Part shown: piece by piece, positions 7,215 to 24,613 of the stretch
Layout of the letters: each line of letters begins with the position of its first letter
Numbering within the stretch: the first letter of the stretch is position 1
Assembly (NCBI GenBank): GCA_964500025.1
Contig: CAZCMQ010000003.1
Location: 1-27,662 of the forward strand
DNA from: an uncultured Candidatus Saccharibacteria bacterium
GTDB lineage: Bacteria > Patescibacteriota > Dojkabacteria > SC72
DNA length: 27,662 nt
Direction: 5' to 3'
Made by a program: the position numbers and the translations under genes
Notes under the pieces: generated by a model
Told to the model about the DNA's origin: nothing
Databases searched by the model: none
Seen by the model: only the letters and a program-made list of their open reading frames with translations

Positions 7215-8321
7215 ATGCCCAAGATAGTAAAACTAGAAAAAAACAACTTAGAGCAAGTATTAAACGAAGCCGTTGAGGTAATTAGAAACGGTGGACTTGT
7301 CGTATATCCATCTGACACGTGCTATGGAATCGCAACAGATGCAACTAATCAAGATGCCGTAGACAGATTGAAAAAATATAAACAATTTAGGGGGCAAAAG
7401 CCAATCTCAGTAAATGTTGCATCAAAAGAAATGGCTTCTGAATATGTAAAAATAAATGAGACAGCACAAAACCTGTATGACAACTACATACCAGGTCCGA
7501 TTACAATAATCTCTGAAAGCCTCGGTAAACTAGCAAATGGGGTCCAATCAGACTGGGGAACAGTAGGAGTAAGAATCCCAGACCATGAGGTTCCAGTTAA
7601 GCTTGCTCAAAAATTTGGAAAGCCGGTAACTGCAACATCTGCAAATGTTTCGTACAAAAGCCTCCCATACAGCATAGAGTCATTATTTAAATACACGCCT
7701 AAGAAAAGTTTGGAACTAATTGATCTAATAATAGATGCAGGAGAACTCCCTAAGAATGTCCCTTCTACTGTTTTGGACACCACCATGAACTCCCTCCAAC
7801 TCTTGCGAGAAGGCAAAATGGAATTTGAAGACGCTGTTAAAAAGTCCAACCTCTACAAAACTGTCACAACACAAACTGCACAGGAAACAATTGAATTTGG
7901 AAAAGAAATAGCACAGTACTTTGCTTCAAAGCATGACAATGGCTCACTCGTTTTTGCATTAAGTGGTGAGCTTGGAGCAGGAAAAACCCAGTTTACCAAA
8001 GGAATTGGAGAGCACCTTTCAGTAGAAGATATGGTTAACTCCCCAACCTACACCATTATCAACGAGTACCGATACAATGACGGAGAGAACGAGAGAACAC
8101 TTGCCCACATGGATACATGGAGAATTGCTGATGTGGAAGAATTCAAAAGATCTGGATTAAAAGAATACTTGGAATCAAGTGATATTGTTGTAATTGAATG
8201 GGCTGACAAATTCTTCCATGAGATTGAAGAGATTGTAAAAGAGTTTGGTGGAGTATTAGTCAAAATTAATTTTAAGTATCTCTCTGAAACAGAAAGGGAG
8301 ATTTCAGTATATGAGTCATAG
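7215..8321 (+). CDS. tsaC-tsaE: fusion of TsaC/YrdC/Sua5-like threonylcarbamoyl-AMP synthase domain (N-term) with TsaE/YjeE P-loop ATPase domain (C-term)
   Basis: N-terminus: GGLVVYPSDTCYGIATDA ... VGVRIPDH (YrdC fold). C-terminus: ALSGELGAGKTQFTKGI ... SPTYTIINEY ... HMDTWRI (TsaE Walker A and SPT motifs). Confidence 0.85.
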   Translation: MPKIVKLEKNNLEQVLNEAVEVIRNGGLVVYPSDTCYGIATDATNQDAVDRLKKYKQFRGQKPISVNVASKEMASEYVKINETAQNLYDNYIPGPITIISESLGKLANGVQSDWGTVGVRIPDHEVPVKLAQKFGKPVTATSANVSYKSLPYSIESLFKYTPKKSLELIDLIIDAGELPKNVPSTVLDTTMNSLQLLREGKMEFEDAVKKSNLYKTVTTQTAQETIEFGKEIAQYFASKHDNGSLVFALSGELGAGKTQFTKGIGEHLSVEDMVNSPTYTIINEYRYNDGENERTLAHMDTWRIADVEEFKRSGLKEYLESSDIVVIEWADKFFHEIEEIVKEFGGVLVKINFKYLSETEREISVYES

Positions 8322-9377: not shown

Positions 9378-10154
9378 TCAGGCTAAGGAACTTATAAAAT
9401 TTTCTATTAAATAGTTTGTCCTTTCTGGTTGCTCCATGTTAACCATATGACCAGCATCTTGGACAATTATCCTTGTAGAATTTCTAATACCACTTTCTAG
9501 AACACCAGCAACTTCATTGTAGTACTCGAGATCATTCTCTCCTGTAATTATCTGAGTTGGTATCTGTATCTGGCTTAACCTTGTTACTGCAGGAGGTTCA
9601 ATTTTTAATGCTGGGTCTTGATTTATCCAATGCCATCCAGAATATTCAGAAACTATATCTTGAATTTCACTAAATACTTGCTCTTTTTTTCTTGCTGGTG
9701 AAAACAACTCATGGTTTAACCAGTTCCTTTTTGCTGTTTCTGTGCCCTTTTCAGCTTCTAGAGAGTACTGTACTTTTCGAGGATATCCTCCTAAAGTTGA
9801 GGAAAGGAGTGTAAGTGACTTTACAAATTCTGGATATGTAAGGGCAAAATCAATTGAAATGTATCCTCCTAGAGAAAGGCCTACAATGTGAGCATTTGTA
9901 ATATTTAAGCTCTTCATAAGATTTAATAAATCCTCATGATGTGAGTAAGGTCCTTTTGGCACTGGCGATTTTCCGAACCCTCGGATATCGTAGGTGATGC
10001 ACGAATAACTGTCTTTCAGGTGCTCGACCTGTTTTCTCCACATCCTATTAGTTAGTCCAAATCCATTGATAAATACAATGGGATCTCCGGAACCTTCTTT
10101 TTCATAGTATATGGGCTCACCTGTGGTTGTATGATCTTCAAATGTTGGTTGCAT
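9378..10154 (-). CDS. alpha/beta hydrolase fold protein
   Basis: IVFINGFGLT... oxyanion region, nucleophile elbow HIVGLSLGG (GxSxG), and a C-terminal DAGHM catalytic His. Confidence 0.8.
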   Translation of the reverse strand: MQPTFEDHTTTGEPIYYEKEGSGDPIVFINGFGLTNRMWRKQVEHLKDSYSCITYDIRGFGKSPVPKGPYSHHEDLLNLMKSLNITNAHIVGLSLGGYISIDFALTYPEFVKSLTLLSSTLGGYPRKVQYSLEAEKGTETAKRNWLNHELFSPARKKEQVFSEIQDIVSEYSGWHWINQDPALKIEPPAVTRLSQIQIPTQIITGENDLEYYNEVAGVLESGIRNSTRIIVQDAGHMVNMEQPERTNYLIENFISSLA

Positions 10155-10242
10155 AGAAGCATTTTATCAGTAGGCTTATTTATAGTAAAGATGATGTTTA
10201 GATATAAACAGATCTTACTGAATTGTTGCTTATGCATTCGTC

Positions 10243-11691
10243 GTGATAGAATATACTATGAGTGGTATCCCAAGAAATTTTGAATCCGAAAGTAGTGAAT
10301 CACAACCCTTATCTGCATTGTCTGTTTTTGATGGTCGCTACAGCGAGGATACAAAAGAATTAACTCCATATCTTTCCGAAGCCGCATTAATTGATAAGAG
10401 AATTTTTGTTGAATTAATGTATTTAATGAAACTCTCCAGAGAAGGGATTGTTAGAGAGTTTTCAGATGAGGAAACCAATTATATTTCCACAATAATTGAT
10501 GAAGATCCCTTGTCGAAAGCTATTGCCATTAAGGGGCATGAGAAGATTGTTAAGCATGATGTAAAAGCTGTTGAACTTTTTTTAAGAGATAAATTCGAAG
10601 GTACATCACTTCAGGATCAGACCGAAAATATTCATTACTGTTTAACATCAGAGGATGTAAACAATCTCGCTTATCGTCTGATGTTTAAAGAGTCTTTAGA
10701 ACAGGTCTTTATGCCAGATTTCGAAAAAGTGATTGTTTCTCTATTGAGTTTTGCTAATGAGAATAGATCAATAGTTATTATGGGTAGAACACATGGGCAA
10801 GATGCTGTGCCAACAACTTTTGGTAAAGAAATTGCCGTTTATGCTGATAGATTATTAAAAAAATATGAGCAGCTCTCAAGACTTAGGTTAACCGGGAAGC
10901 TAAATGGTGCGGTAGGTTCCTGGAACTCTTTCTACTTTGCGCACCCTGAGTCAGATTGGATTAGAATTTCAAAAGAATTTGTGGAGAGTCTTGGTCTGGA
11001 GTTTAATCCGGTAACAACTCAGATCAATCCATATGACGATGTTGTTGAAATGCTTTCAAAGTTCCATAATATTAATGGAATTCTTCTAGACCTGGATCAG
11101 GATATGTGGCGCTACATTAGTGATGGATGGCTCAAACAAAAGAATGCAGAAAATCAAGTGGGTTCTTCTACAATGCCTCAGAAGGTCAATCCAATTAATT
11201 TCGAAAACAGTGAAGGTAATTTACAGATAGCTAATGGAAGCATTGAGGCACTTCAGAGAACCTTACCTATCTCAAGATTGCAGCGAGATCTGTCAAACAG
11301 TACTTTAGTTCGCAATGTTTCTCACATATTTGGCTACGAACATTTGGCGATGGCTGGAATTTTAAAAGGAATGTCAAAGGTATTTGTTGATCAGCAAAAA
11401 GTAGCCTCGTACTTGAATGAAAATTGGTCAAATCTTGCAGAACCGTTACAGACTTTGCTTCGTAAAAGTGGATTCTCAGATGCATATGAAGATGTCAGAA
11501 AAAAGGTTATGGGTAGGTCACTAAGTCGAGAGGAGTGGACTTCACTGGTTACAGAATTGGCAGTAGATGGTCATGTTAAAGAGGAGTTGTTAGGATTAGA
11601 TTTCTCTCGGTATATTGGCATTAGTGAAGGTATTGTTGATCTTGTCTCTAAAAAAGCGACTACTTTACTTCACTCCAACAGGGATAGCTAA
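10243..11691 (+). CDS. purB: adenylosuccinate lyase
   Basis: Fumarate-lyase signature GSSTMPQKVNPINFENSEGN. It can be aligned with E. coli PurB throughout (HDVKAVE, CLTSEDVNN, GRTHGQDAVP). Confidence 0.9.
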   Translation: MIEYTMSGIPRNFESESSESQPLSALSVFDGRYSEDTKELTPYLSEAALIDKRIFVELMYLMKLSREGIVREFSDEETNYISTIIDEDPLSKAIAIKGHEKIVKHDVKAVELFLRDKFEGTSLQDQTENIHYCLTSEDVNNLAYRLMFKESLEQVFMPDFEKVIVSLLSFANENRSIVIMGRTHGQDAVPTTFGKEIAVYADRLLKKYEQLSRLRLTGKLNGAVGSWNSFYFAHPESDWIRISKEFVESLGLEFNPVTTQINPYDDVVEMLSKFHNINGILLDLDQDMWRYISDGWLKQKNAENQVGSSTMPQKVNPINFENSEGNLQIANGSIEALQRTLPISRLQRDLSNSTLVRNVSHIFGYEHLAMAGILKGMSKVFVDQQKVASYLNENWSNLAEPLQTLLRKSGFSDAYEDVRKKVMGRSLSREEWTSLVTELAVDGHVKEELLGLDFSRYIGISEGIVDLVSKKATTLLHSNRDS

Positions 11692-11733
11692 TAGCACTTG
11701 CATGACATCCCCTTTGTGATATTATGAGGGTAT

Positions 11734-13224
11734 ATGGATGGAGTCACCGGCAGAATAATGGACTCGAAAGAAGTCCTAAAATTGTATCGTGATACAGTTA
11801 AAAACTCTCCACCTCTCACCAAACTTAAAAGCAGTATAAAAAATCCCGGAGGCTCATATCGCCCCAATACCATTTCTGTAGAAGACGTATATTTTGGAGA
11901 TTCTGGAAAAGGATCTGTTGTTGCAAAATACAACAATATTCTTGCTAAAGATATGAAGCTGGTTTCACTCCGCTTTAATGGAGGGGCTAACGCGGGTCAC
12001 GAGACTATGTTTAATGGAAAACTTGTTGTTACTCATCAACTCCCAACTGCAGTCGCAGCACCTGGTGCTGTTGCAATAATTAGTAGGGGAATGTTAATCC
12101 ACCCTGAAGATCTTCTTGTCGAAATAAATGAAGTAAAAGAAGTTTTCTCTGGCATCCTTCCAGGGCAACTACTAATAGACGAAAGAGTCACCCTTGCACT
12201 TGATACACACAGGGCATTTGAAGGCGTGTTAAATGGTATAACCACAGGAGGAAGAGGATCCACCGGTCGAGGAATCGCAACGGGTTACTCAAGTCACTAC
12301 GAGAGATTCCCTGTTATTCTAAAAGACCTGCTTTCCCATAGATGGGAAGATATTTTTAGAGCACACTACAGAATATATGAGAAGCTAGTCCTCGGATCTT
12401 CAAACTCCCTTCCACTTTCTGAAATTGAAGTTCTAACCTATTCAAAAAACAAGGGTGAGAAAAGAAAGGTAGGAGACGAAGATACCTTTATATCGAGATT
12501 AAAACTCGCTCGTTCAGAAATTAGGCGTTACAGGGTTGATAACATGCACGACGTTATCAAGCAGGCTTGGCAGGATACAAAAGTAGCTGTAACTATTGAG
12601 GGCGCACAAGGAGCTGGTCTTGATCCGTATCATGGTGTCTATCCCGATGTAACATCCAGTAGACCAATGTCGCGCTTTATGAATGATGCTACATACAACA
12701 TCATTCTTCCTGAAGATATTCTTTTTAGAGTAGCTGTCATGAAAACAACATACATGTCCAGTGTAGGCAGAAGAGTTCTTCCTGATATGCCAGATGAGGA
12801 GAAGATAAAATGGATACAAAGTGCTTTTGATGAAAGGGGAAGAACCTCTGGAAGGTTAAGAGATATATATCCTGTTTCCATACCTATTGCCCAATATCTA
12901 AGAAGGGCGGCTGGTTATACATGTATTGCCGCAACGCACCTTGATGCTTCAAAAGTTGATTCCGATATTGAAGTTGTTACTCACTACACGAAAAAAGATT
13001 CTGGTGAAGAGGGACCATACCTTCCTTATCAAGATATCCTTGATGAATTTGATCCAAACTTTGTAAAATTTAGCGGTTGGGATGGTGAGGAAGTAAAAAC
13101 TATTCATAACCCTAAGAATTTGCCTTTGGAAGCTCTGCAGTATCTTCACTTCTTGGACAAAACAATTGCCCCTGTTGTTATGGCAACAACAGGCCCAGAT
13201 TTAGAGGACTATATTCTCTGGTAG
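11734..13224 (+). CDS. purA: adenylosuccinate synthetase, divergent, with a ~45-aa N-terminal extension
   Basis: YFGDSGKGSVVAKY (P-loop, GDEGKGK-like) and NGGANAGHE (GGxNAGHT). 496 aa compared with roughly 430 in typical PurA. Confidence 0.8.
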   Translation: MDGVTGRIMDSKEVLKLYRDTVKNSPPLTKLKSSIKNPGGSYRPNTISVEDVYFGDSGKGSVVAKYNNILAKDMKLVSLRFNGGANAGHETMFNGKLVVTHQLPTAVAAPGAVAIISRGMLIHPEDLLVEINEVKEVFSGILPGQLLIDERVTLALDTHRAFEGVLNGITTGGRGSTGRGIATGYSSHYERFPVILKDLLSHRWEDIFRAHYRIYEKLVLGSSNSLPLSEIEVLTYSKNKGEKRKVGDEDTFISRLKLARSEIRRYRVDNMHDVIKQAWQDTKVAVTIEGAQGAGLDPYHGVYPDVTSSRPMSRFMNDATYNIILPEDILFRVAVMKTTYMSSVGRRVLPDMPDEEKIKWIQSAFDERGRTSGRLRDIYPVSIPIAQYLRRAAGYTCIAATHLDASKVDSDIEVVTHYTKKDSGEEGPYLPYQDILDEFDPNFVKFSGWDGEEVKTIHNPKNLPLEALQYLHFLDKTIAPVVMATTGPDLEDYILW

Positions 13225-13279
13225 CTTGTCTTTTATTTTCTGCTGCACTATTATTTATAGTTAAGTTAGGGATACAAAC

Positions 13280-15547
13280 ATGGCTCGAAACTTATATTCT
13301 CAAGAACCGGTAGTTATAAACTCAGTATATAAAGATACTCAGTCTTCTCCTACAAAAAAGTATCTTGAAATAGCAACTACTAATGAGAATAAGTTGAAGG
13401 AAATTCGCAGGATTCTGAAGGATTTCGAGATAATTGGAAAGTCTCTAGATATAGAGGAGATACAATCATTAAATTGGTCAAGGGTTGCCTCCGCTAAGGC
13501 AAAAGCAGCATATGAAGCAAATGGGTATAATCCTATTTTAGTAGAAGACACCTCGCTTGAAGTAAAAGGTCTTGATGGCTTCCCTGGAACTTATGTTAAT
13601 GATTTCTTCTCAACCGCTTCTATGAGAAAGGAGGTTGCCCAAAATTGGCTTAATGGAAAAGATAGATCCGCAATTGCTAAAGTAACCCTTGCCATCTTTG
13701 ACGGTAAAGAAGCTTTCATTTTTGAGGGAAATTGCGAAGGTAAAATTTCCGAAACTCCTATGGGTATGAATGGCTTTGGATGGGATGACATCTTTATCCC
13801 AAATGGTCAGCCAAAGGGTGAAAAGAAAACATTTGCACAGATGAATTCTGAGCAAAAGGATAAGTATTCGATGAGAGTGAATGCTTTAAAGAAATTTCTT
13901 AAGAGTCCTCCAGTTTTGAACTACAAAGTTTTTAAACTTCTTGAACCTTTTGACCAAGAGATGCAACGAGTTAGACTAAAGGAATTGAAGGATGAGACAG
14001 CTATTAAGTTCGCGTATACTCTCGAAGCGATCGAGGGTGATAATGAAGCGAATAATCTTTTAACTGCTCCTAACTATTCTGAAGTTTACTTAGAAGAGAA
14101 TGCCTATTTTTCTAGATTTTTGCAAAAGAAAAATAGTAAAAGCATAGGATTAATGCTGACTGATACTGATCGTACACACATAAAGTTGCAGAAAAATGGT
14201 TATCCAGTCCTTTGGCAAATGGGTCCAGAGAGAAGGCACCTTGCCTTGGCAGAAAGGGTTGAATATTTTACTGAAAATCAGAGTAAAGATGCTCATAAGA
14301 TATTGGATGAATTGGAAAATAAAAAAGAAAGTTTCCCAAAGAGGTCTAATAAGAGATCTATTACTATAGATAGATCTTTAGGGTTTGTCGGTGGAGATGT
14401 TGTAACTCGTGCTTCTGCAGTAAAGGAAATTGGTTATAAGAAATTTGCATCAGAAAAAGAAGTGAGCAGAACGAAGGCTTCAAAATCTGGGCTTTTCAAT
14501 ATAATTGGGAAGTATGCAAGAAGTATTTATTCAATTGGTTGTCTTCCTTGGGTTTCTGGTTGGAGAGATGTGATTATTACCGGTGCAGTCGGCCATATGC
14601 CTGTTTTTGTACACAGGAATAATCTCAATGCGATTGATCTTCAGAATCAAATTGATCTGATTAACGATGCGAAAAAAGCTATAAAAAGTTTAGGTCTTTC
14701 AAAAAAAGCTCTTGAGAGGGCGTATAATAATATCGGTGCGGCGGTAGGTACAAATCCTGTCGAGGATAGGAAAAAAGCTAGGAGGCTATATGATGAAGCA
14801 GGTGTGAAATTATTTAGGATATACACAATAAACTCGGATCCTAGGGTTGTTCAAACAGCACGAGCAATTAGAGAAGAACTAGGGGAAGATGTAGAGATAT
14901 TTGTTGGTCAGTTAGTTGATAAAAGACAGGCGTATGAATTAATTGTTGATGATATTAAGATTGACGGTTTGATTATTGGTCACGGTGGTGGAAGAGTCTG
15001 TACATCTGCAACGAATGGCATGGCACTTAGCACACTTGAAGAAATTTATTCGATCGTTACTGATAGTGCATTTAATAATACTAGTGTACTTGTTGAGGGT
15101 GGTTTAGGTAGTCATATTGGAAGTTCACTTATTATGGGAGTTGATGGCATATTGCGCAATGGACAATTTGCAAGCTGTGTTATTGAGCAGGGTGACCTAT
15201 TTTTTGAACATATGAATGGAAAGCCTTGTCAGCCATACCATGGTAGCGCAAGTGCTGCAACTATGATTATTGAGTCATACAATCCTGAGAATGCTAAGGG
15301 ACGATTATTTGCTAGTGGAAGGGCTAAAAATGTAGAAGGTAAGCCTGGCTACATTTATTATGAGGAAAAGGGTAACTCAATGTCGTTCTATGTAAATGAA
15401 TTCAAACACTATGCGGCGAGGACTCTTGCAGATTTAGGTGTTGAAAGTATCTGGGAATTGAGAGAGTTTGTAGCAAATACAGATGAAGAGATATTTAGAG
15501 AGGTTACGCCAGAAGCATCAGTTGTTTCAGGAGCTTGGAGGAACTAG
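13280..15547 (+). CDS. multidomain protein: N-terminal Ham1/RdgB-type non-canonical purine NTP pyrophosphatase (ITPase) domain, an uncharacterised middle region, and a C-terminal IMPDH/GMP-reductase-like TIM barrel with catalytic Cys loop
   Basis: N-terminus: ATTNENKLKE ... VEDTSLEV ... GFPGTYVNDF (ITPase motifs). C-terminus: IGHGGGRVCTSATNGMAL (compare IMPDH VGIGPGSICTTR) ... VLVEGGLGSHIGSSLIMGVDG (compare IADGGI..SGDI.KA.A.GA). 755 aa. Confidence 0.7.
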   Translation: MARNLYSQEPVVINSVYKDTQSSPTKKYLEIATTNENKLKEIRRILKDFEIIGKSLDIEEIQSLNWSRVASAKAKAAYEANGYNPILVEDTSLEVKGLDGFPGTYVNDFFSTASMRKEVAQNWLNGKDRSAIAKVTLAIFDGKEAFIFEGNCEGKISETPMGMNGFGWDDIFIPNGQPKGEKKTFAQMNSEQKDKYSMRVNALKKFLKSPPVLNYKVFKLLEPFDQEMQRVRLKELKDETAIKFAYTLEAIEGDNEANNLLTAPNYSEVYLEENAYFSRFLQKKNSKSIGLMLTDTDRTHIKLQKNGYPVLWQMGPERRHLALAERVEYFTENQSKDAHKILDELENKKESFPKRSNKRSITIDRSLGFVGGDVVTRASAVKEIGYKKFASEKEVSRTKASKSGLFNIIGKYARSIYSIGCLPWVSGWRDVIITGAVGHMPVFVHRNNLNAIDLQNQIDLINDAKKAIKSLGLSKKALERAYNNIGAAVGTNPVEDRKKARRLYDEAGVKLFRIYTINSDPRVVQTARAIREELGEDVEIFVGQLVDKRQAYELIVDDIKIDGLIIGHGGGRVCTSATNGMALSTLEEIYSIVTDSAFNNTSVLVEGGLGSHIGSSLIMGVDGILRNGQFASCVIEQGDLFFEHMNGKPCQPYHGSASAATMIIESYNPENAKGRLFASGRAKNVEGKPGYIYYEEKGNSMSFYVNEFKHYAARTLADLGVESIWELREFVANTDEEIFREVTPEASVVSGAWRN

Positions 15548-15604
15548 TAGACAAATTTCCAGAAATTCTATATTATCCTCTAGAATAATATTGCCGGTTT
15601 TAAG

Positions 15605-15877
15605 ATGACAGAAAGCCAGCCGAAGCCAGATCAGAATGGCGTACCAGATACAGAGGCATACAAAGTTGAAATAGAGGCTTTTGTTAATGCATTCATAAAT
15701 TCTCCCGAAGAACTAGAGCTAAGGTCATCTGCTGATTTCTCTTTTTTGAGCAATATCAATAACTATACTATACCTGGGATAATAAGTGAGATAAATTTTT
15801 CATATCCTGATCTTCTGTCTGATGAGATGATAGACTTGAACTCAGAACTGTTCCTGCCCTTGACGAGAATGTGCTAA
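15605..15877 (+). CDS. hypothetical small acidic protein
   Basis: 90-aa ORF. Overlaps the next ORF by 7 nt in a different frame. Confidence 0.3.
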   Translation: MTESQPKPDQNGVPDTEAYKVEIEAFVNAFINSPEELELRSSADFSFLSNINNYTIPGIISEINFSYPDLLSDEMIDLNSELFLPLTRMC

Positions 15878-16260
15878 CTGCCAGAGTAGCAACAATCTAT
15901 AGAATCCTTCATATCCTACAACCAATGTGCGCTGTGCGTAGAGAGATTTTAAGTGATTCAGAATGGTCAGACACAGAAGAAGCTCATCATCTTATAAGTA
16001 AAGTTTTGAATTATACAATTACGCAGATTTGTAGTCTGATTACTTTTGACGGATCAAGGGATATTGTTACATATAAAGGAAAGAAGATGTTGTTTGACCA
16101 ATACTTACAAGAAAATTGTATAGCCACAGTAAACCCAGAATACAAGGTATCTGTCATTGAGATGAGTGAAATATTAGCGCGTCTTCAAGATTACTTCATG
16201 GGTGATCCTCCAGACTCATTTGCCGATAGATATCTGGTTGAGGACGATGATGAAGAATAA
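15871..16260 (+). CDS. hypothetical acidic protein (GTG start in the ORF track; an internal Met is also possible)
   Basis: 129-aa ORF ending in EDDDEE. Could be the downstream half of a frameshifted single gene together with 15605..15877. Confidence 0.3.
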   Translation: MLTARVATIYRILHILQPMCAVRREILSDSEWSDTEEAHHLISKVLNYTITQICSLITFDGSRDIVTYKGKKMLFDQYLQENCIATVNPEYKVSVIEMSEILARLQDYFMGDPPDSFADRYLVEDDDEE

Positions 16261-18414: not shown

Positions 18415-18495
18415 CGTTATTTGTATAAACTTAAACAGTATATTTTTGCATTTAACTGTCTCAGTTGCAAGATTTCCTTTGTGATATAATTAATT

Positions 18496-18939
18496 ATGCC
18501 AGGTGTAGAAACAATTTTGACGTTTAAAGCAGTTATTCTCCATAAATTGAAGATTCTCTTGGTTAAAAGGTCTGGCGAGGGTTATTTTGCACCAGATAAG
18601 TGGGAGTTTCCTGGCGGAAAGCTTAAGGTAGGAGAGAGGGTTGAAGATGTTTTAGAGAAGGAGGTTTTTGAAGAAACTGGTTTAACTGTTTCACTTCTGA
18701 GCAAGTTAGGATATATGCAAACTGAAACTGCCGATAATCCCAAGTATAAAGGATTACCTGTGATTAGAGTCTATATGCTAGCAAAGTCCGAATCAGATCG
18801 AGTTAAGCTTAGTAAGGAGCATACAGACAGTAAGTGGGTTTTACTTTCAGAAGCATATCAATACGATTTGAGTGATCAGACTAGAAAAGCATTGCAGATT
18901 TTGGAGGAGGGTGTAAAGACACAGTTATGGAGGCAGTAG
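18496..18939 (+). CDS. NUDIX hydrolase
   Basis: Nudix box GGKLKVGERVEDVLEKEVFEETGL (Gx5Ex7REUxEExGU). An extended -10 (TGTGATATAAT, 18480-18490) lies 5 nt upstream of the ATG. Confidence 0.85.
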   Translation: MPGVETILTFKAVILHKLKILLVKRSGEGYFAPDKWEFPGGKLKVGERVEDVLEKEVFEETGLTVSLLSKLGYMQTETADNPKYKGLPVIRVYMLAKSESDRVKLSKEHTDSKWVLLSEAYQYDLSDQTRKALQILEEGVKTQLWRQ

Positions 18940-18980
18940 TTTAACTATTTGCTTATATTTGGTAAACTTGTGCACATTCA

Positions 18981-19064
18981 GCCGAGGTGGCGAAATTGGC
19001 AGACGCACTACCTTGAGGTGGTAGCGGGAGCAATCCTTTGCAGGTTCAAGTCCTGTCCTCGGCA
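18981..19064 (+). tRNA. tRNA-Leu (anticodon GAG), class II with long variable arm; CCA not encoded
   Basis: Acceptor GCCGAGG/CCTCGGC, 3-bp D-stem GCG/CGC with long D-loop, anticodon stem CTACC/GGTAG with loop TTGAGGT, long variable arm, T-arm GCAGG-TTCAAGT-CCTGT, discriminator A. Confidence 0.85.
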
Positions 19065-19078
19065 GATATAATTGATCT

Positions 19079-19537
19079 CTACACCTCCAAATCTTTGATA
19101 ATTATTTTCTTCATCTTCATCATATTTGCAAATGCTTTAGGATTTTGGACAATGTCATCAATTGCTTCTGGTGCTACCTGCCAACTAAGTCCATACTTAT
19201 CTTTTAACCAACCGCATACACTCTCCTGACCGCCTTCTTTTGTTAGCTCCTCCCAGTAATAGTCGATTTCTTCTTGGTCTTTACATTCAATAAGGAGGGA
19301 AATTGCTTCTGTAAAGCTAAATTCTGGTCCAGCATTGATAGCGATAAATTTCTGTCCAAGTAATTCAAACTCAATAGTGAGAACTTTCCCTGCCAAATGC
19401 TTTTGGAAATCTTCAAGTCCTTCCATTGGGTAATAATGGGTTTTAAGTATTTTGGAGTCTTTAAATACTTTGAGGTAAAAGCTGACTGCTTCCTCAGCGT
19501 TGCCATTGAACCACAAATTTGTAATTATTTTTTGCAT
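19079..19537 (-). CDS. PhnB-like / VOC (glyoxalase) family protein (3-demethylubiquinone-9 3-methyltransferase-like domain)
   Basis: LWFNGNAEEAVSFY ... THYYP ... CGWLKDKYGLSWQV motifs, characteristic of the PhnB/DUF1428-type VOC fold. Confidence 0.7.
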   Translation of the reverse strand: MQKIITNLWFNGNAEEAVSFYLKVFKDSKILKTHYYPMEGLEDFQKHLAGKVLTIEFELLGQKFIAINAGPEFSFTEAISLLIECKDQEEIDYYWEELTKEGGQESVCGWLKDKYGLSWQVAPEAIDDIVQNPKAFANMMKMKKIIIKDLEV

Positions 19538-19718
19538 AAAATCATTGTATCATTCTGACATTGGATATCAACTTTTACTGAGGAGACATTTGGTGTTGTA
19601 TAATGTGCTATCTCTAATGATTTAAGCCCTAACTATATTTCAAGTACCACAAAGAATATTTAAAGTTTCTATACTAATTGGAGTTTTAAGTACTCTACCT
19701 TTTGTCATTCTTGAAGCA

Positions 19719-19955
19719 GTGTACACCTCTGGTTTCTCCCAGTCAGGTTTCCCGGCAGCATTTCCATACATGTTCTTATTATCTACCATCTTTACTTTTA
19801 CATTATTCTCCACTATTAGAGGGATAAAAGAGAAAACAGATGGGCAAACTTTATTAATTATTCTTTGCACGGTTTTAGTACTCTTCCTTGGTTCCCACTG
19901 GGTTTATTTCGTAATTGATCAGTGGCCGTGTTTTCTTGGTGCAACTGGTTGTTGA
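19719..19955 (+). CDS. possible small membrane protein (two hydrophobic segments); low confidence. It overlaps an antisense ORF, 19640..19870, so only one of the two is likely real.
   Basis: 78-aa ORF with the hydrophobic stretches FPYMFLLSTIFTFTLF and LLIILCTVLVLFLG. No homology evidence. Confidence 0.2.
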   Translation: MYTSGFSQSGFPAAFPYMFLLSTIFTFTLFSTIRGIKEKTDGQTLLIILCTVLVLFLGSHWVYFVIDQWPCFLGATGC

Positions 19956-20025
19956 GGATACATCAATTTTATTATGAAGGGGTATTTTCTCATTTGAGTT
20001 TTTAAGGTAAAATATGAACTACTCT

Positions 20026-20102
20026 GGACGATTAGCTCAGCTGGTTAGAGCATCTCGTTTACACCGAGAGGGTCGCAGGTTCGAATCCTGCATCGTCCAC
20101 CA
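20026..20102 (+). tRNA. tRNA-Val (anticodon TAC), CCA encoded
   Basis: Perfect acceptor GGACGAT/ATCGTCC, D-arm GCTC-AGCTGGTTA-GAGC, anticodon stem TCTCG/CGAGA with loop TTTACAC, T-arm GCAGG-TTCGAAT-CCTGC, discriminator A, then CCA. Confidence 0.9.
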
Positions 20103-20153
20103 TTGAGTTTTTCACTTCTGCCTTAAAACAATTTTGTATAATAATCTATTTTT

Positions 20154-21083
20154 ATGAGCGAGTATTTTGGTCGAGGCAATGGTTCTCTTGATGGAGAGGG
20201 AAGGAAGAACGATTTAACAGCTGAAATTAACGCTTCAATTGCTCGACTTGCCCCTGGATTTATTGCGTCTCATTTGCACAAGCAAGACGTTGGTGATGGT
20301 TTGCCAGGATATCAATGTACATTAGTTGATGAATCAAGAGGAGTTGCAATTTCTCTAGCTCTTAGTAATGAGGATTTCAAAGATCTTAGCACACTTCCAT
20401 TTGCAGACCTTACTGATCCAATTACTACGGCAGTTGATGGTACTGCATTGACATTACAAAAGACAATTATTGGCCACTTCCCAAATACACTCCCATATCA
20501 AACTAAAATTCGTTTAGTTATAGCTAACGGAGAGATATTTTATGATACATACGAAAACTCACAGGGTCTTTTGCATGGCAGAACCTTATTTACAGATGGA
20601 ATAAAAAGGCTAGGAGGCTTAATCTCCAATACAAATTTTGAACTAGAAATTCTTAAATCTACTTCAAACATCCTCTTTGAAATAAATAGAATGTTGAATG
20701 ATGCCTTACTGAGTTGGGATGATCTATCCAGTATTTCTGATGAGCACGCATCAATTCTTTCTGAGTATGGGTTATTGGATATACTCAAGCTAAAGTTGGG
20801 AAAAGATTTGGGCGGGATAATAGATTGGAGTAAGATGCAAACAATGTGCATAAAATTTGTGGGCACGGATGGATGGGATAACGAATACCTTCTTTTAACA
20901 AGAATCCCTGTCAATGGAGAATACAAAATCGGCGCATATAGAATATCTCCTTCGCTTACGAATGTATTAGTTGTAGGTGATAATACAATATTTGTTGATA
21001 AAGAAGCGTTCTCTATAGTGACGGATTTGGCAGAATCTCTCTATGAAGATAAGGATGTCGCGCTGAGAGTTAATGTCTACTAG
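20154..21083 (+). CDS. hypothetical protein, 309 aa, immediately upstream of RuBisCO
   Basis: Long ORF with no motif I can assign. Lies 69 bp upstream of the RuBisCO gene on the same strand. A -10-like TGTATAAT sits 13 nt before the ATG. Confidence 0.5.
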   Translation: MSEYFGRGNGSLDGEGRKNDLTAEINASIARLAPGFIASHLHKQDVGDGLPGYQCTLVDESRGVAISLALSNEDFKDLSTLPFADLTDPITTAVDGTALTLQKTIIGHFPNTLPYQTKIRLVIANGEIFYDTYENSQGLLHGRTLFTDGIKRLGGLISNTNFELEILKSTSNILFEINRMLNDALLSWDDLSSISDEHASILSEYGLLDILKLKLGKDLGGIIDWSKMQTMCIKFVGTDGWDNEYLLLTRIPVNGEYKIGAYRISPSLTNVLVVGDNTIFVDKEAFSIVTDLAESLYEDKDVALRVNVY

Positions 21084-21152
21084 TCTTTTACTCCTTGTAA
21101 TTTCCTCATTGAGATAGTATCGTATAATCGATTTACTTAACCTGCCCATACA

Positions 21153-22685
21153 ATGCAAGAGCAATATCTAAGTCTTGGTAACAAGGATGTCCTAAACGGA
21201 CAATACCTGCTAGCCGTATTCAAAATAGTACCTTATGGTGATGAATCAATAGAAAGTGCTGCAACCGAAGCAGCTGCAGAATCTTCTACTGGATCAAACC
21301 TAAAAGTTTCTTCAGCAACAAACTACTCAATGAATATTGATGCGCTTGTATATGATATAGATAAAGAGAGGAGCCTTGTCTATATAGCATACCCATGGAT
21401 TATGTTTGATAGAGGTGGGAATATTCAAAACATCCTTACCTTCCTTGCTGGAAATGTTTTTGGAATGAGTAACCTTAAAGAGTGTAAGCTTCTTGATGTT
21501 TGGTTCCCACCACAGATGCTTGTGCAGTACGATGGACCAAGTTACACCCTCGATGACATGAGAAGATATCTTGATGTATACGACAGACCAATTCTAGGAA
21601 CAATCATTAAACCTAAAATCGGACTAACTTCAACAGAGTATGCTGAACTTTGCTACGATTTCTGGGTTGGAGGCGGTGATTTTGTAAAAAATGACGAACC
21701 TCAGGCTGATCAGTTCTTTTCTCCATTTGAAAAAATGGTTGATAGTGTAAGAGAGGCAATGGACAAAGCCGAAAAAGAAACAGGACGAACTAAGGTTCAC
21801 TCATTTAATGTTTCTGCAGCAGACTTGGAAACTATGGTTAGGAGAGCAAGGTATGTTGTGCAGACAATGAAGCCTGGTAGTGCATCTCTTTTAATTGATG
21901 GAATCACTGCAGGTTGGAGTGCTGTACAGACACTGAGAAGAAATTTCCCTAATACCTTTATTCACTTCCACAGGGCAGGGCATGGTGGATTTACAAGAAA
22001 AGAAAACCCAATAGGATATACAGTTCCCGTAATGACGAAGTTTGCCAGACTTGCCGGTGCATCGGGTGTGCATACTGGTACAGCGGGTGTTGGAAAAATG
22101 TCAGGAGATGCCCATGAGGATATCACAGCAGCACATCAGGCCCTTAGATTCTGTGCAGATGGATGGTATTTTAGGCAAGTATGGTCAGAAGTTCCATCAA
22201 GAGACACAAATATTCAGGAAATGATTTCTAAAGAGAAAAAAGTTTGGGAGATGGGTGCTAGAGAACTTGCTAAAATGAGAAGGACTAAAGCTCTTAGTGC
22301 AGAGGGGCTTGAAGAACATACTAACTGGAGAGTAATTCCAAAAATGTCTCCAATTGTTTCTGGTGGGATCAACCCAGTATTACTTCCAGAGTTCTTAGAT
22401 GTAATGAAATCAATTGACTTTATAATTACAATGGGTGCTGGGGTTCACTCACACCCAATGGGAACTACTTCTGGTGTGAAAGCAGTTTTACAAGCGTATG
22501 AGGCATGGTTGGAAAACGTACCACTTGAGGAGTTTGCACGTGATAAAGAGGAATTGAGAGTTGCGGTTGAATTTTACAACAAGTACGGAACTCAAGCTCA
22601 TAAAATGAAAAGTGATAGTTCTCAGGTAGAAAATCAAAACACTAGTGGTGAGGTTACTTCACCAATTGAAGATCCTACGCTTTAG
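21153..22685 (+). CDS. rbcL: ribulose-1,5-bisphosphate carboxylase/oxygenase large subunit, form II/III-like (as described in CPR bacteria and archaea)
   Basis: Alignable with RbcL throughout: AAESSTGS, GNVFG, IIKPKIGLTSTEY (K175/K177), GGGDFVKNDE (K201 carbamate site plus D/E Mg ligands), HFHRAGH (H294), HTGTAGVGKMSGD (K334), PIVSGGINP (S379-G-G), MGAGVHSHPMGT (G403/G404). It has a ~25-aa insertion before the SGG loop and a ~30-aa C-terminal tail. Confidence 0.9.
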   Translation: MQEQYLSLGNKDVLNGQYLLAVFKIVPYGDESIESAATEAAAESSTGSNLKVSSATNYSMNIDALVYDIDKERSLVYIAYPWIMFDRGGNIQNILTFLAGNVFGMSNLKECKLLDVWFPPQMLVQYDGPSYTLDDMRRYLDVYDRPILGTIIKPKIGLTSTEYAELCYDFWVGGGDFVKNDEPQADQFFSPFEKMVDSVREAMDKAEKETGRTKVHSFNVSAADLETMVRRARYVVQTMKPGSASLLIDGITAGWSAVQTLRRNFPNTFIHFHRAGHGGFTRKENPIGYTVPVMTKFARLAGASGVHTGTAGVGKMSGDAHEDITAAHQALRFCADGWYFRQVWSEVPSRDTNIQEMISKEKKVWEMGARELAKMRRTKALSAEGLEEHTNWRVIPKMSPIVSGGINPVLLPEFLDVMKSIDFIITMGAGVHSHPMGTTSGVKAVLQAYEAWLENVPLEEFARDKEELRVAVEFYNKYGTQAHKMKSDSSQVENQNTSGEVTSPIEDPTL

Positions 22686-24034: not shown

Positions 24035-24613
24035 TCATGCAAACACTGCAGCCTCAAGCCTTCCAAGACGGTTGTCTATTTTATCAAGTTGTATTGTAAG
24101 CTCTGTTTCTAGGTGGCGATTTATTCCAACTGCAACATCTTGTAGGGATCCGAGATTCTTTTTTAAGTTAGATGCTTCTTGAGATATTTTTTCAACCTTC
24201 TCTTCTACAATATCCAACCTAAGCAAAACGTTTGTCATATTTGCATCAAGCCTTGTTAGCGTTTCTGAGTGCTCTTCTAGTTTACTGTTTATGTTTCCTA
24301 GCATGGTGTTTATATTTCCTAGTTTCTTGTCTTGTTTAGTGTTCATATTTCCTAGCTCTTTGTCTAGTTTGGCGTTCATATTTCCCAGCTCTTTGTCTAG
24401 TTTGGCATTCATGTTTCCCAGTTCCTTGTCTAGTTTGGCGCTCATATTTCCCAGTTCCTTGTCTAGTCTTGAGTTCACATCCTCGAACCGATCATCTAAT
24501 CTTTTATTGATAGCTCCTATTTCAATATCCAATTTTTCTAGAATTGAATGCTTGACCTCGAGTATACCCTTGAGTAGATTTTGTTCTACTTTTCTATTCA
24601 TATTTTTGATCAT
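24035..24613 (-). CDS. coiled-coil protein composed almost entirely of 11-residue (hendecad) repeats [KR]LDxELGNMNx
   Basis: 192 aa. At least 15 consecutive 11-mers, e.g. KLDKELGNMNA three times nearly identical, with flanking degenerate units (RLDDRFEDVNS, RLDANMTNVLL, RLDIVEEKVEK). No TM segment. Confidence 0.6.
   Translation of the reverse strand: MIKNMNRKVEQNLLKGILEVKHSILEKLDIEIGAINKRLDDRFEDVNSRLDKELGNMSAKLDKELGNMNAKLDKELGNMNAKLDKELGNMNTKQDKKLGNINTMLGNINSKLEEHSETLTRLDANMTNVLLRLDIVEEKVEKISQEASNLKKNLGSLQDVAVGINRHLETELTIQLDKIDNRLGRLEAAVFA
24287..24472. repeat. 33-bp tandem direct repeats (about 5-6 units, the central ones near-identical) that encode the hendecad protein repeats
   Basis: Units at 24341-24373, 24374-24406, 24407-24439 and 24440-24472 (consensus GTTCATATTTCCCAGCTCTTTGTCTAGTTTGGC), plus degenerate upstream copies from about 24287. 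Confidence 0.85.

Follow-up and report, generated by a model that had tools for sequence, protein, structure and literature searches.

Side by side, probably without a functional tie: a predicted form II/III RuBisCO gene and a putative orphan gene in a Dojkabacteria-like genome

The stretch of 27,662 nucleotides analysed here (contig CAZCMQ010000003.1, referred to as the window in its full length) carries a gene, rbcL, for the large subunit of RuBisCO (the carboxylase/oxygenase of ribulose-1,5-bisphosphate) downstream of an open reading frame (ORF) of 309 codons, ORF309. Both start with ATG and are located on the forward strand. ORF309 (20154-21083) follows tRNA-Val(tac) (20026-20102, forward strand; identified by ARAGORN, 73 bits with Rfam) after 51 bp, and a perfect -10 hexamer, TATAAT, is present on the same strand at 20137-20142, 11 nt 5' of the ORF309 start codon. 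The orphan ORF is separated from rbcL by a spacer of 69 bp (21084-21152, forward strand), which harbors a second TATAAT at 21123-21128, 24 nt 5' of the rbcL ATG. The rbcL gene itself (21153-22685) encodes a protein of 510 aa, RbcL. An earlier note on this DNA had described the same layout, a 309-aa ORF after tRNA-Val and 69 bp from RuBisCO, and its coordinates and gaps were confirmed. The GC content is flat over the whole window (~37-40%), and enolase is encoded on the opposite strand 3.6 kb 5' of rbcL. Three tRNAs were the only hits of an Rfam scan of the window, in which no riboswitch and no leader was detected.

The placement of RbcL among the RuBisCO forms is based on score ranking and on the cutoffs of curated hidden Markov models. 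RbcL matches the Pfam families RuBisCO_large_N and RuBisCO_large. Its score lies above the cutoff of the NCBIfam form II equivalog PRK13475 (527.9 bits, cutoff 489) and below that of the NCBIfam form III model (322 bits, cutoff 497). Models of form IV RuBisCO-like proteins (RLPs) gave scores far short of their cutoffs of 409-700 bits (MtnW 108 and 136 bits, OiaX 155 bits). When PDB sequences were ranked against full-length RbcL, form II/III enzymes came first (9DYP, 693 bits; 5MAC from M. burtonii, 631 bits; 8VGS from Ca. Methanofastidiosum, 606 bits), followed by form II (~286-324 bits), form III (~216-218 bits) and form I (~180-183 bits). An AlphaFold2 (AF2) model built from 62 homologues reached a predicted local distance difference test (pLDDT) score of 88.8. 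Foldseek searches with this model returned TM-scores, normalised to the target, of 0.92-0.97 to 9DYR, 9DYP, 5MAC and 8VGS, and the order of the forms was the same as in the PDB sequence ranking. At E<=1e-100, RbcL has 1,141 relatives. The nearest sequences are 76-85% identical, the nearest named homologues belong to Candidatus Dojkabacteria, and the gene backbone of the window is common to the Dojkabacteria metagenome-assembled genome GCA_016182915.1, so that the window most likely stems from a Dojkabacteria/CPR genome. The assignment of RbcL as a form IV RLP was ruled out by the RLP scores below the cutoffs together with the intact catalytic residues described below. During the structure comparison, it was observed that PDB entries 9DYP and 9DYR are titled M. 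burtonii Rubisco, yet their 468-aa sequence differs from that of 5MAC (474 aa, M. burtonii). On visual inspection, this sequence is close to the short-insert metagenomic protein P0087, and the title may misstate the true source. A literature search on the PDB code 9DYP returned no relevant paper.

The catalytic residues found in RbcL (spinach numbering in brackets) are E43 (E60), N101 (N123), K153/K155 (K175/K177), K179/D181/E182 (K201/D203/E204), H273/R274 (H294/R295), H307 (H327), K315 (K334), S403-G404-G405 (S379-G381) and G428/G430. All of them are 100% conserved in an alignment of 121 sequences, which consists of RbcL and its 120 best homologues. The position of spinach T65 is occupied by Ser48 in RbcL, a substitution shared by 90% or more of the clade. 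The earlier note had claimed a complete set of key residues and a bona fide form II/III carboxylase rather than an RLP, and both claims are borne out by the invariance of the residues, by the RLP models that fail and the form II equivalog that passes, and by the form II/III identity of the nearest structures. Its designation "KPK loop-6" has to be corrected, as KPK is not loop 6, which carries K315 (K334). Judged by its sequence, RbcL is a catalytically complete carboxylase-type enzyme of form II/III and of an already-described kind.

Between alpha6 and beta7, RbcL contains an insertion (residues ~346-393; 22188-22331, forward strand) that was delimited by alignments to 9DYP, 5MAC and 8VGS and by the AF2 model, and that is of the type of the Rubisco assembly domain (RAD). 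In the M. burtonii enzyme (MbR), RAD comprises 29 aa, residues 361-389 (Gunn et al., 2017, PMC5399129). Relative to form II, the insertion of RbcL amounts to ~48 aa, composed of the 29 aa known from RAD of M. burtonii and of 19 further residues (365-383, WEMGARELAKMRRTKALSA; 22245-22301, forward strand). These extra residues fall inside the segment that forms RAD in M. burtonii and correspond to a 19-residue gap in all three solved form II/III enzymes. Between the anchors W344 and W392, 47 residues are found in RbcL versus 28 in short form II/III enzymes, so that the previous estimate of a ~25-aa insertion was too low. In the AF2 model, the insertion is composed of helices 352-367, 369-379 and 388-393, of which the first two form a helical hairpin. 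Three of the four ligands of the Mg2+ lock, by which RAD joins the RuBisCO dimers of M. burtonii to each other, are kept (MbR D366, E179 and D183 correspond to RbcL D351, E165 and D169). The fourth ligand, MbR D368, is replaced by N353 (codon 22209-22211), whereas 90% or more of the clade have Asp at this position. An insertion of 48 aa was already described for Dojkabacteria WS6-1 (Wrighton et al., 2016, PMC5113843), and insertions of "29 amino acid (or longer)" were reported by Jaffe et al. (2019). In our alignment, 19 sequences have an insert of 28 aa, and in the remaining 102 it spans 39-55 aa.

The second extension of RbcL is a polar/acidic C-terminal tail of 26 aa (residues 485-510; 22605-22682, forward strand), which follows the conserved GTQAH[KR] motif (here GTQAHK). 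The tail is predicted to be disordered, with pLDDT values below 50 for residues 487-510 in the AF2 model. Its sequence is not kept even in the 85%-identical relative. The tail had been described before as ~30 aa long and unusual; tails of at least 15 aa recur in 11 of the 120 homologues, and a long tail is a recurrent, unconstrained feature of the clade. With a long insert that is already published and shared by 102 of the 121 sequences, and a tail of this kind, RbcL has two extensions that are not unusual for its clade.

Among known RuBisCOs, the enzyme of Dojkabacteria WS6-1 (WS6_GWF2_39_15) can be likened to RbcL by its published description (PMC5113843): the nearest named homologues of RbcL are from the same phylum, the genomic GC content is similar (~38%), and the insertion has the same position and a length of ~48 aa. 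RbcL differs from WS6-1 by its longer, 26-aa C-terminal tail. The M. burtonii enzyme 5MAC, which is matched over the full length of RbcL with the 631 bits given above, has the same active site, an insertion between alpha6 and beta7 and the three shared lock ligands. In contrast to M. burtonii, RbcL has an insertion with 19 additional aa and a predicted two-helix hairpin in place of a loop-helix-loop, D368 is exchanged for N353, and the host is a Candidate Phyla Radiation (CPR) bacterium. The RubisCOs of Peregrinibacteria (PER) are also of form II/III, with a proposed role in the nucleoside/AMP pathway in CPR, and the form II/III RubisCO of PER is catalytically active and complements R. capsulatus (PMC5113843). 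However, PER enzymes lack the insertion altogether (PMC5113843), whereas it comprises ~48 aa in RbcL. Proteobacterial form II enzymes (R. rubrum 9RUB, R. palustris 4LF1) share the fold (TM-score ~0.9, normalised to the target) and the catalytic residues with RbcL, but they are only 33-37% identical, act in the Calvin-Benson-Bassham (CBB) cycle and have no RAD-type insertion; the alignment by phmmer is interrupted at residue 345.

ORF309 looks like a genuine protein-coding gene. At the base composition of the window, 309 codons in a row would be free of stops with a probability of 4.7e-10. In frame, the codon score of ORF309 reaches 0.235 bits/codon, compared to 0.17-0.38 for the family-assigned genes of the window, and the two off-frames score -0.65 and -0.88. 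Its GC content (0.38) and its GC at third codon positions (GC3, 0.29) are host-like. The predicted product is a soluble protein of 34 kDa with a pI of 4.6, for which neither a transmembrane segment nor a signal peptide is predicted. ORF309 has no internal repeats and no paralogue among the proteins of the window. A TATAAT hexamer is found within 40 nt 5' of the gene start in 9 of the 27 window genes (0.56 expected, P ~1e-8). Because such a hexamer, enriched before gene starts in the window, lies 11 nt upstream, ORF309 has the feature that locally marks a gene with a promoter of its own. The TATAAT at 20137-20142 is probably the own promoter of ORF309, giving a very short leader with no Shine-Dalgarno (SD) motif. 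A generic sigma-70 and terminator scan predicted no more sites than in shuffled sequences, and the ORF starts had none. SD-like motifs precede only 4 of the 27 window genes, and none was found at ORF309. Together, the TATAAT enrichment and the scarcity of SD motifs suggest that very short or leaderless mRNAs are the norm in this genome.

In all collections searched, ORF309 is a strict orphan. When 5.8 billion clusters were searched by word index, ORF309 retrieved only itself, and a full phmmer search against 1.84 billion representatives returned itself and two spurious matches. The latter, two repeat proteins (6x Hsp20 and 11x SpaA), were rejected as artefacts, since their E-values of ~1e-6 are summed from 4-7 weak stretches on different parts of the query. 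No relative was revealed when collections of genome, viral and metagenome contigs were scanned with degenerate patterns, and tblastn gave no match in phages and plasmids and nothing (E>=4) in seven related rbcL loci. Neither Pfam nor NCBIfam contained a family that matched at E<=1, and the PDB contained no matching chain at E<=10. PHROGs and PADLOC yielded nothing, the best hit, to a PHROG, having E = 0.29. Accessory factors known for RuBisCO (RbcX, Raf1, Raf2, CbbX/Rca, CbbQ-CbbO, RbcS) did not match ORF309 in family-model searches. The family searches also agree with the earlier note in that ORF309 is neither a ribose-1,5-bisphosphate (R15P) isomerase (E2b2) nor an AMP phosphorylase (DeoA) and belongs to no recognisable family. 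A single-sequence AF2 model (pLDDT 39.7) was too poor for a fold search.

The closest RbcL (P0002, 85% identical) is encoded on a 113-kb Logan contig, L001, which shares with the window a backbone of GGDEF, thioredoxin, Sua5-TsaE, TsaD, enolase (-), Band7 (-), tRNA-Leu(gag), tRNA-Val(tac), rbcL, mscL (-), htpX-like M48, rmuC and DUF1846 (-). The left landmark of a variable zone, tRNA-Leu(gag) (18981-19064, forward strand; ARAGORN, 51 bits with the Rfam tRNA model), is kept in L001, with 93% DNA identity, and in L002, another of the related loci. The tRNA-Val likewise is 93% identical to L001 (9798-9919). The DNA alignment of the window with L001 ends with tRNA-Val (20104; L001 9919) and restarts at 21133 (L001 9981). 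In L001, tRNA-Val is followed by rbcL after 83 bp; there is no gene in between and ORF309 is absent. The 69-bp spacer between ORF309 and rbcL aligns to most of this 83-bp spacer, including the position of the TATAAT, with a local alignment score of 50, whereas shuffled sequences gave a mean of 19 and a maximum of 36 (0 of 300 reached 50). Because of this significant alignment, rbcL keeps its own 5' region in the window. On the DNA alignment, ORF309 together with its 51-nt leader is a presence/absence cassette of ~985 bp relative to L001, located 5' of an intact rbcL upstream region.

The side upstream of rbcL also differs among the other related loci: an NYN-domain protein and then ABC-F are found in L002, L003 and L004, an AAA_30/UvrD-like helicase in L005, ABC-F in L006 and a VTT-domain protein in L007. 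By contrast, mscL, htpX, rmuC and what follows them on the downstream side are conserved. The tRNA-Leu/tRNA-Val zone is considered an indel hot spot because its gene content differs between the window and its relatives. A comparison of window 18415-20153 with L001 9366-10000 showed that a NUDIX gene (18496-18939) and a 3-dmu-9_3-mt/VOC-like gene (19079-19537, reverse strand) of the window are missing in L001, which has an unrelated 80-aa ORF between tRNA-Leu and tRNA-Val. In L002, five other genes lie between tRNA-Val and rbcL. At the other end of rbcL, the gene converges with mscL (-) and overlaps it by 11 bp (22675-22685, from the last codons of the tail through the stop), with no terminator-like site fitting between the two genes; in L001 the overlap is 4 bp.

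These data very probably reflect two independent genes side by side, a form II/III rbcL and a strain-specific orphan, ORF309, with no detectable functional tie. The rbcL gene would belong to the long-insert subclade of form II/III in a Dojkabacteria-like (CPR/Patescibacteria) genome and would encode an enzyme with a disordered, fast-evolving C-terminal tail. By analogy to form II/III and form III enzymes that have been characterised, RbcL most likely carboxylates ribulose-1,5-bisphosphate that is made from AMP or nucleosides by the pathway of AMP phosphorylase and R15P isomerase, and its product 3-phosphoglycerate (3-PGA) would feed lower glycolysis. ORF309 would be an independently promoted accessory gene for a soluble acidic protein, either gained here or lost elsewhere, and would occupy a hypervariable slot bounded by tRNA-Val on one side and by the conserved upstream region of rbcL on the other.

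Several points weigh against this interpretation. For the proposed role in the AMP pathway, neither deoA nor e2b2 nor prk is present among the ORFs of the 27.7-kb window. Moreover, an expressed Dojkabacteria (WS6) RubisCO gave no detectable activity; this was linked by Wrighton et al. to missing catalytic residues (PMC5113843) and is not applicable to RbcL of the window. Regarding the independence of the two genes, ORF309 and rbcL are co-directional and only 69 bp apart with no predicted terminator in between, and for this reason read-through co-transcription might occur. A strain-specific interaction of ORF309 with RbcL is possible and would be compatible with the absence of homologues, and the exact sequence of the RbcL tail is also unique to the window strain.

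The location next to a tRNA raises the question whether ORF309 was carried in by a small element, mobile or integrative, that inserted at the tRNA-Val 3' end, i.e., whether it is a remnant islet that possibly carries a defence or host-interaction gene. The clean presence/absence block relative to L001, the start of ORF309 just 51 bp past the tRNA 3' end and the different genes that occupy the tRNA-Leu/tRNA-Val zone in each relative would fit such an origin. However, no integrase or transposase was found, flanking direct or inverted (att-like) repeats are only short and at chance level, base composition and codon usage of ORF309 are indistinguishable from those of the host, and the PHROG, PADLOC, phage, plasmid and viral-contig searches gave no match. 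A mobile origin is therefore regarded as unlikely.

In the earlier note, ORF309 was proposed as a lineage-specific partner of RuBisCO, for example an assembly or regulatory factor. Such a partner would be co-transcribed with rbcL and would bind, e.g., to the strain-specific tail or to the enlarged insertion. The shared strand, the short distance and the lack of a terminator-like site between the genes are in favor of this idea, as is the fact that neither ORF309 nor the exact tail sequence occurs outside the window strain. On the other hand, the co-occurrence check that had been proposed along with the idea turned out negative: no homologue of ORF309 was found anywhere, compared to more than 1,100 relatives of RbcL, and all seven related rbcL loci, including that of the closest syntenic relative L001, are devoid of it. 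The rbcL upstream region is retained with its own TATAAT, at E<=1 ORF309 matches no family of Pfam or NCBIfam, RbcX, Raf1, CbbQ and CbbX included, and form II/III enzymes fold and assemble unaided in E. coli (PMC5113843, PMC5399129). The argument from adjacency is outweighed because ORF309 is absent from more than 1,100 RbcL-bearing relatives and from the syntenic locus, while the 5' region of rbcL is retained. A RuBisCO partner in this sense is very unlikely. In a variant of this idea, ORF309 encodes a very young protein, arisen de novo or hyper-diverged, that was recruited to modulate the RuBisCO of its own strain, for instance by docking on the disordered tail or the enlarged assembly domain, with read-through from its own promoter into rbcL. 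We give this variant hardly any weight.

It has also been considered that ORF309 is no gene at all, but a non-functional, fortuitous or decaying ORF that was annotated only for its length. ORF309 is a singleton, its AF2 model has a pLDDT of only 39.7 and an SD motif is missing, although most genes of the window have none either. Low AF2 confidence is, however, expected when no alignment is available, and the improbable length of the ORF, an in-frame codon score within the range of bona fide genes with strongly negative off-frames, and the promoter-like TATAAT at a typical distance from the start make a spurious ORF very improbable. Finally, it is scarcely credible that RbcL is a form IV RLP, for which nothing could be counted and against which all carboxylase residues and the low RLP scores speak, or that it acts with PRK in the CBB cycle instead of nucleoside salvage; some CPR with form III-c encode PRK (PMC6389311), but no prk gene is present in the window and the literature ties the form II/III enzymes of CPR to the AMP pathway (PMC5113843).

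Apart from rbcL and ORF309, other genes of the window deserve mention. A block of 6.9 kb (9378-16260) between tsaD and enolase encodes an alpha/beta hydrolase (-), PurB, PurA, a fusion protein of 755 aa and an ORF of 129 aa, and is missing in L001, in which tsaD and enolase are direct neighbours. The products of two genes of this block, PurA and PurB, convert IMP to AMP, from which the RuBisCO pathway is presumed to be fed. Closed WS6 genomes were reported to be without purine synthesis (Wrighton et al., PMC5113843). The 755-aa protein (13280-15547, forward strand) is an unusual fusion of an N-terminal Ham1/ITPase (residues 31-208) with a C-terminal partial IMPDH/GMP-reductase barrel (residues 454-729). 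A Sua5/YrdC-TsaE fusion (7215-8321, forward strand) is followed by an overlapping tsaD, and the same fusion is present in L001. Downstream of rbcL, a coiled-coil protein of 192 aa (24035-24613, reverse strand) contains ~4-5 copies of the tandem 11-aa repeat LDKELGNMNAK; an unannotated ORF of 128 aa is found at the same position in L001.

In summary, the useful result of this study is a negative one. The adjacency of two genes misled the first reading of the locus, and ORF309 should not be propagated in annotations as a "RuBisCO-associated" factor. Beyond annotation, the importance of the locus is limited, as it adds one more sequence to the well-documented long-insert clade of CPR form II/III RuBisCOs. 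The effect of the long insertion on oligomerisation could be studied with any member of this clade.

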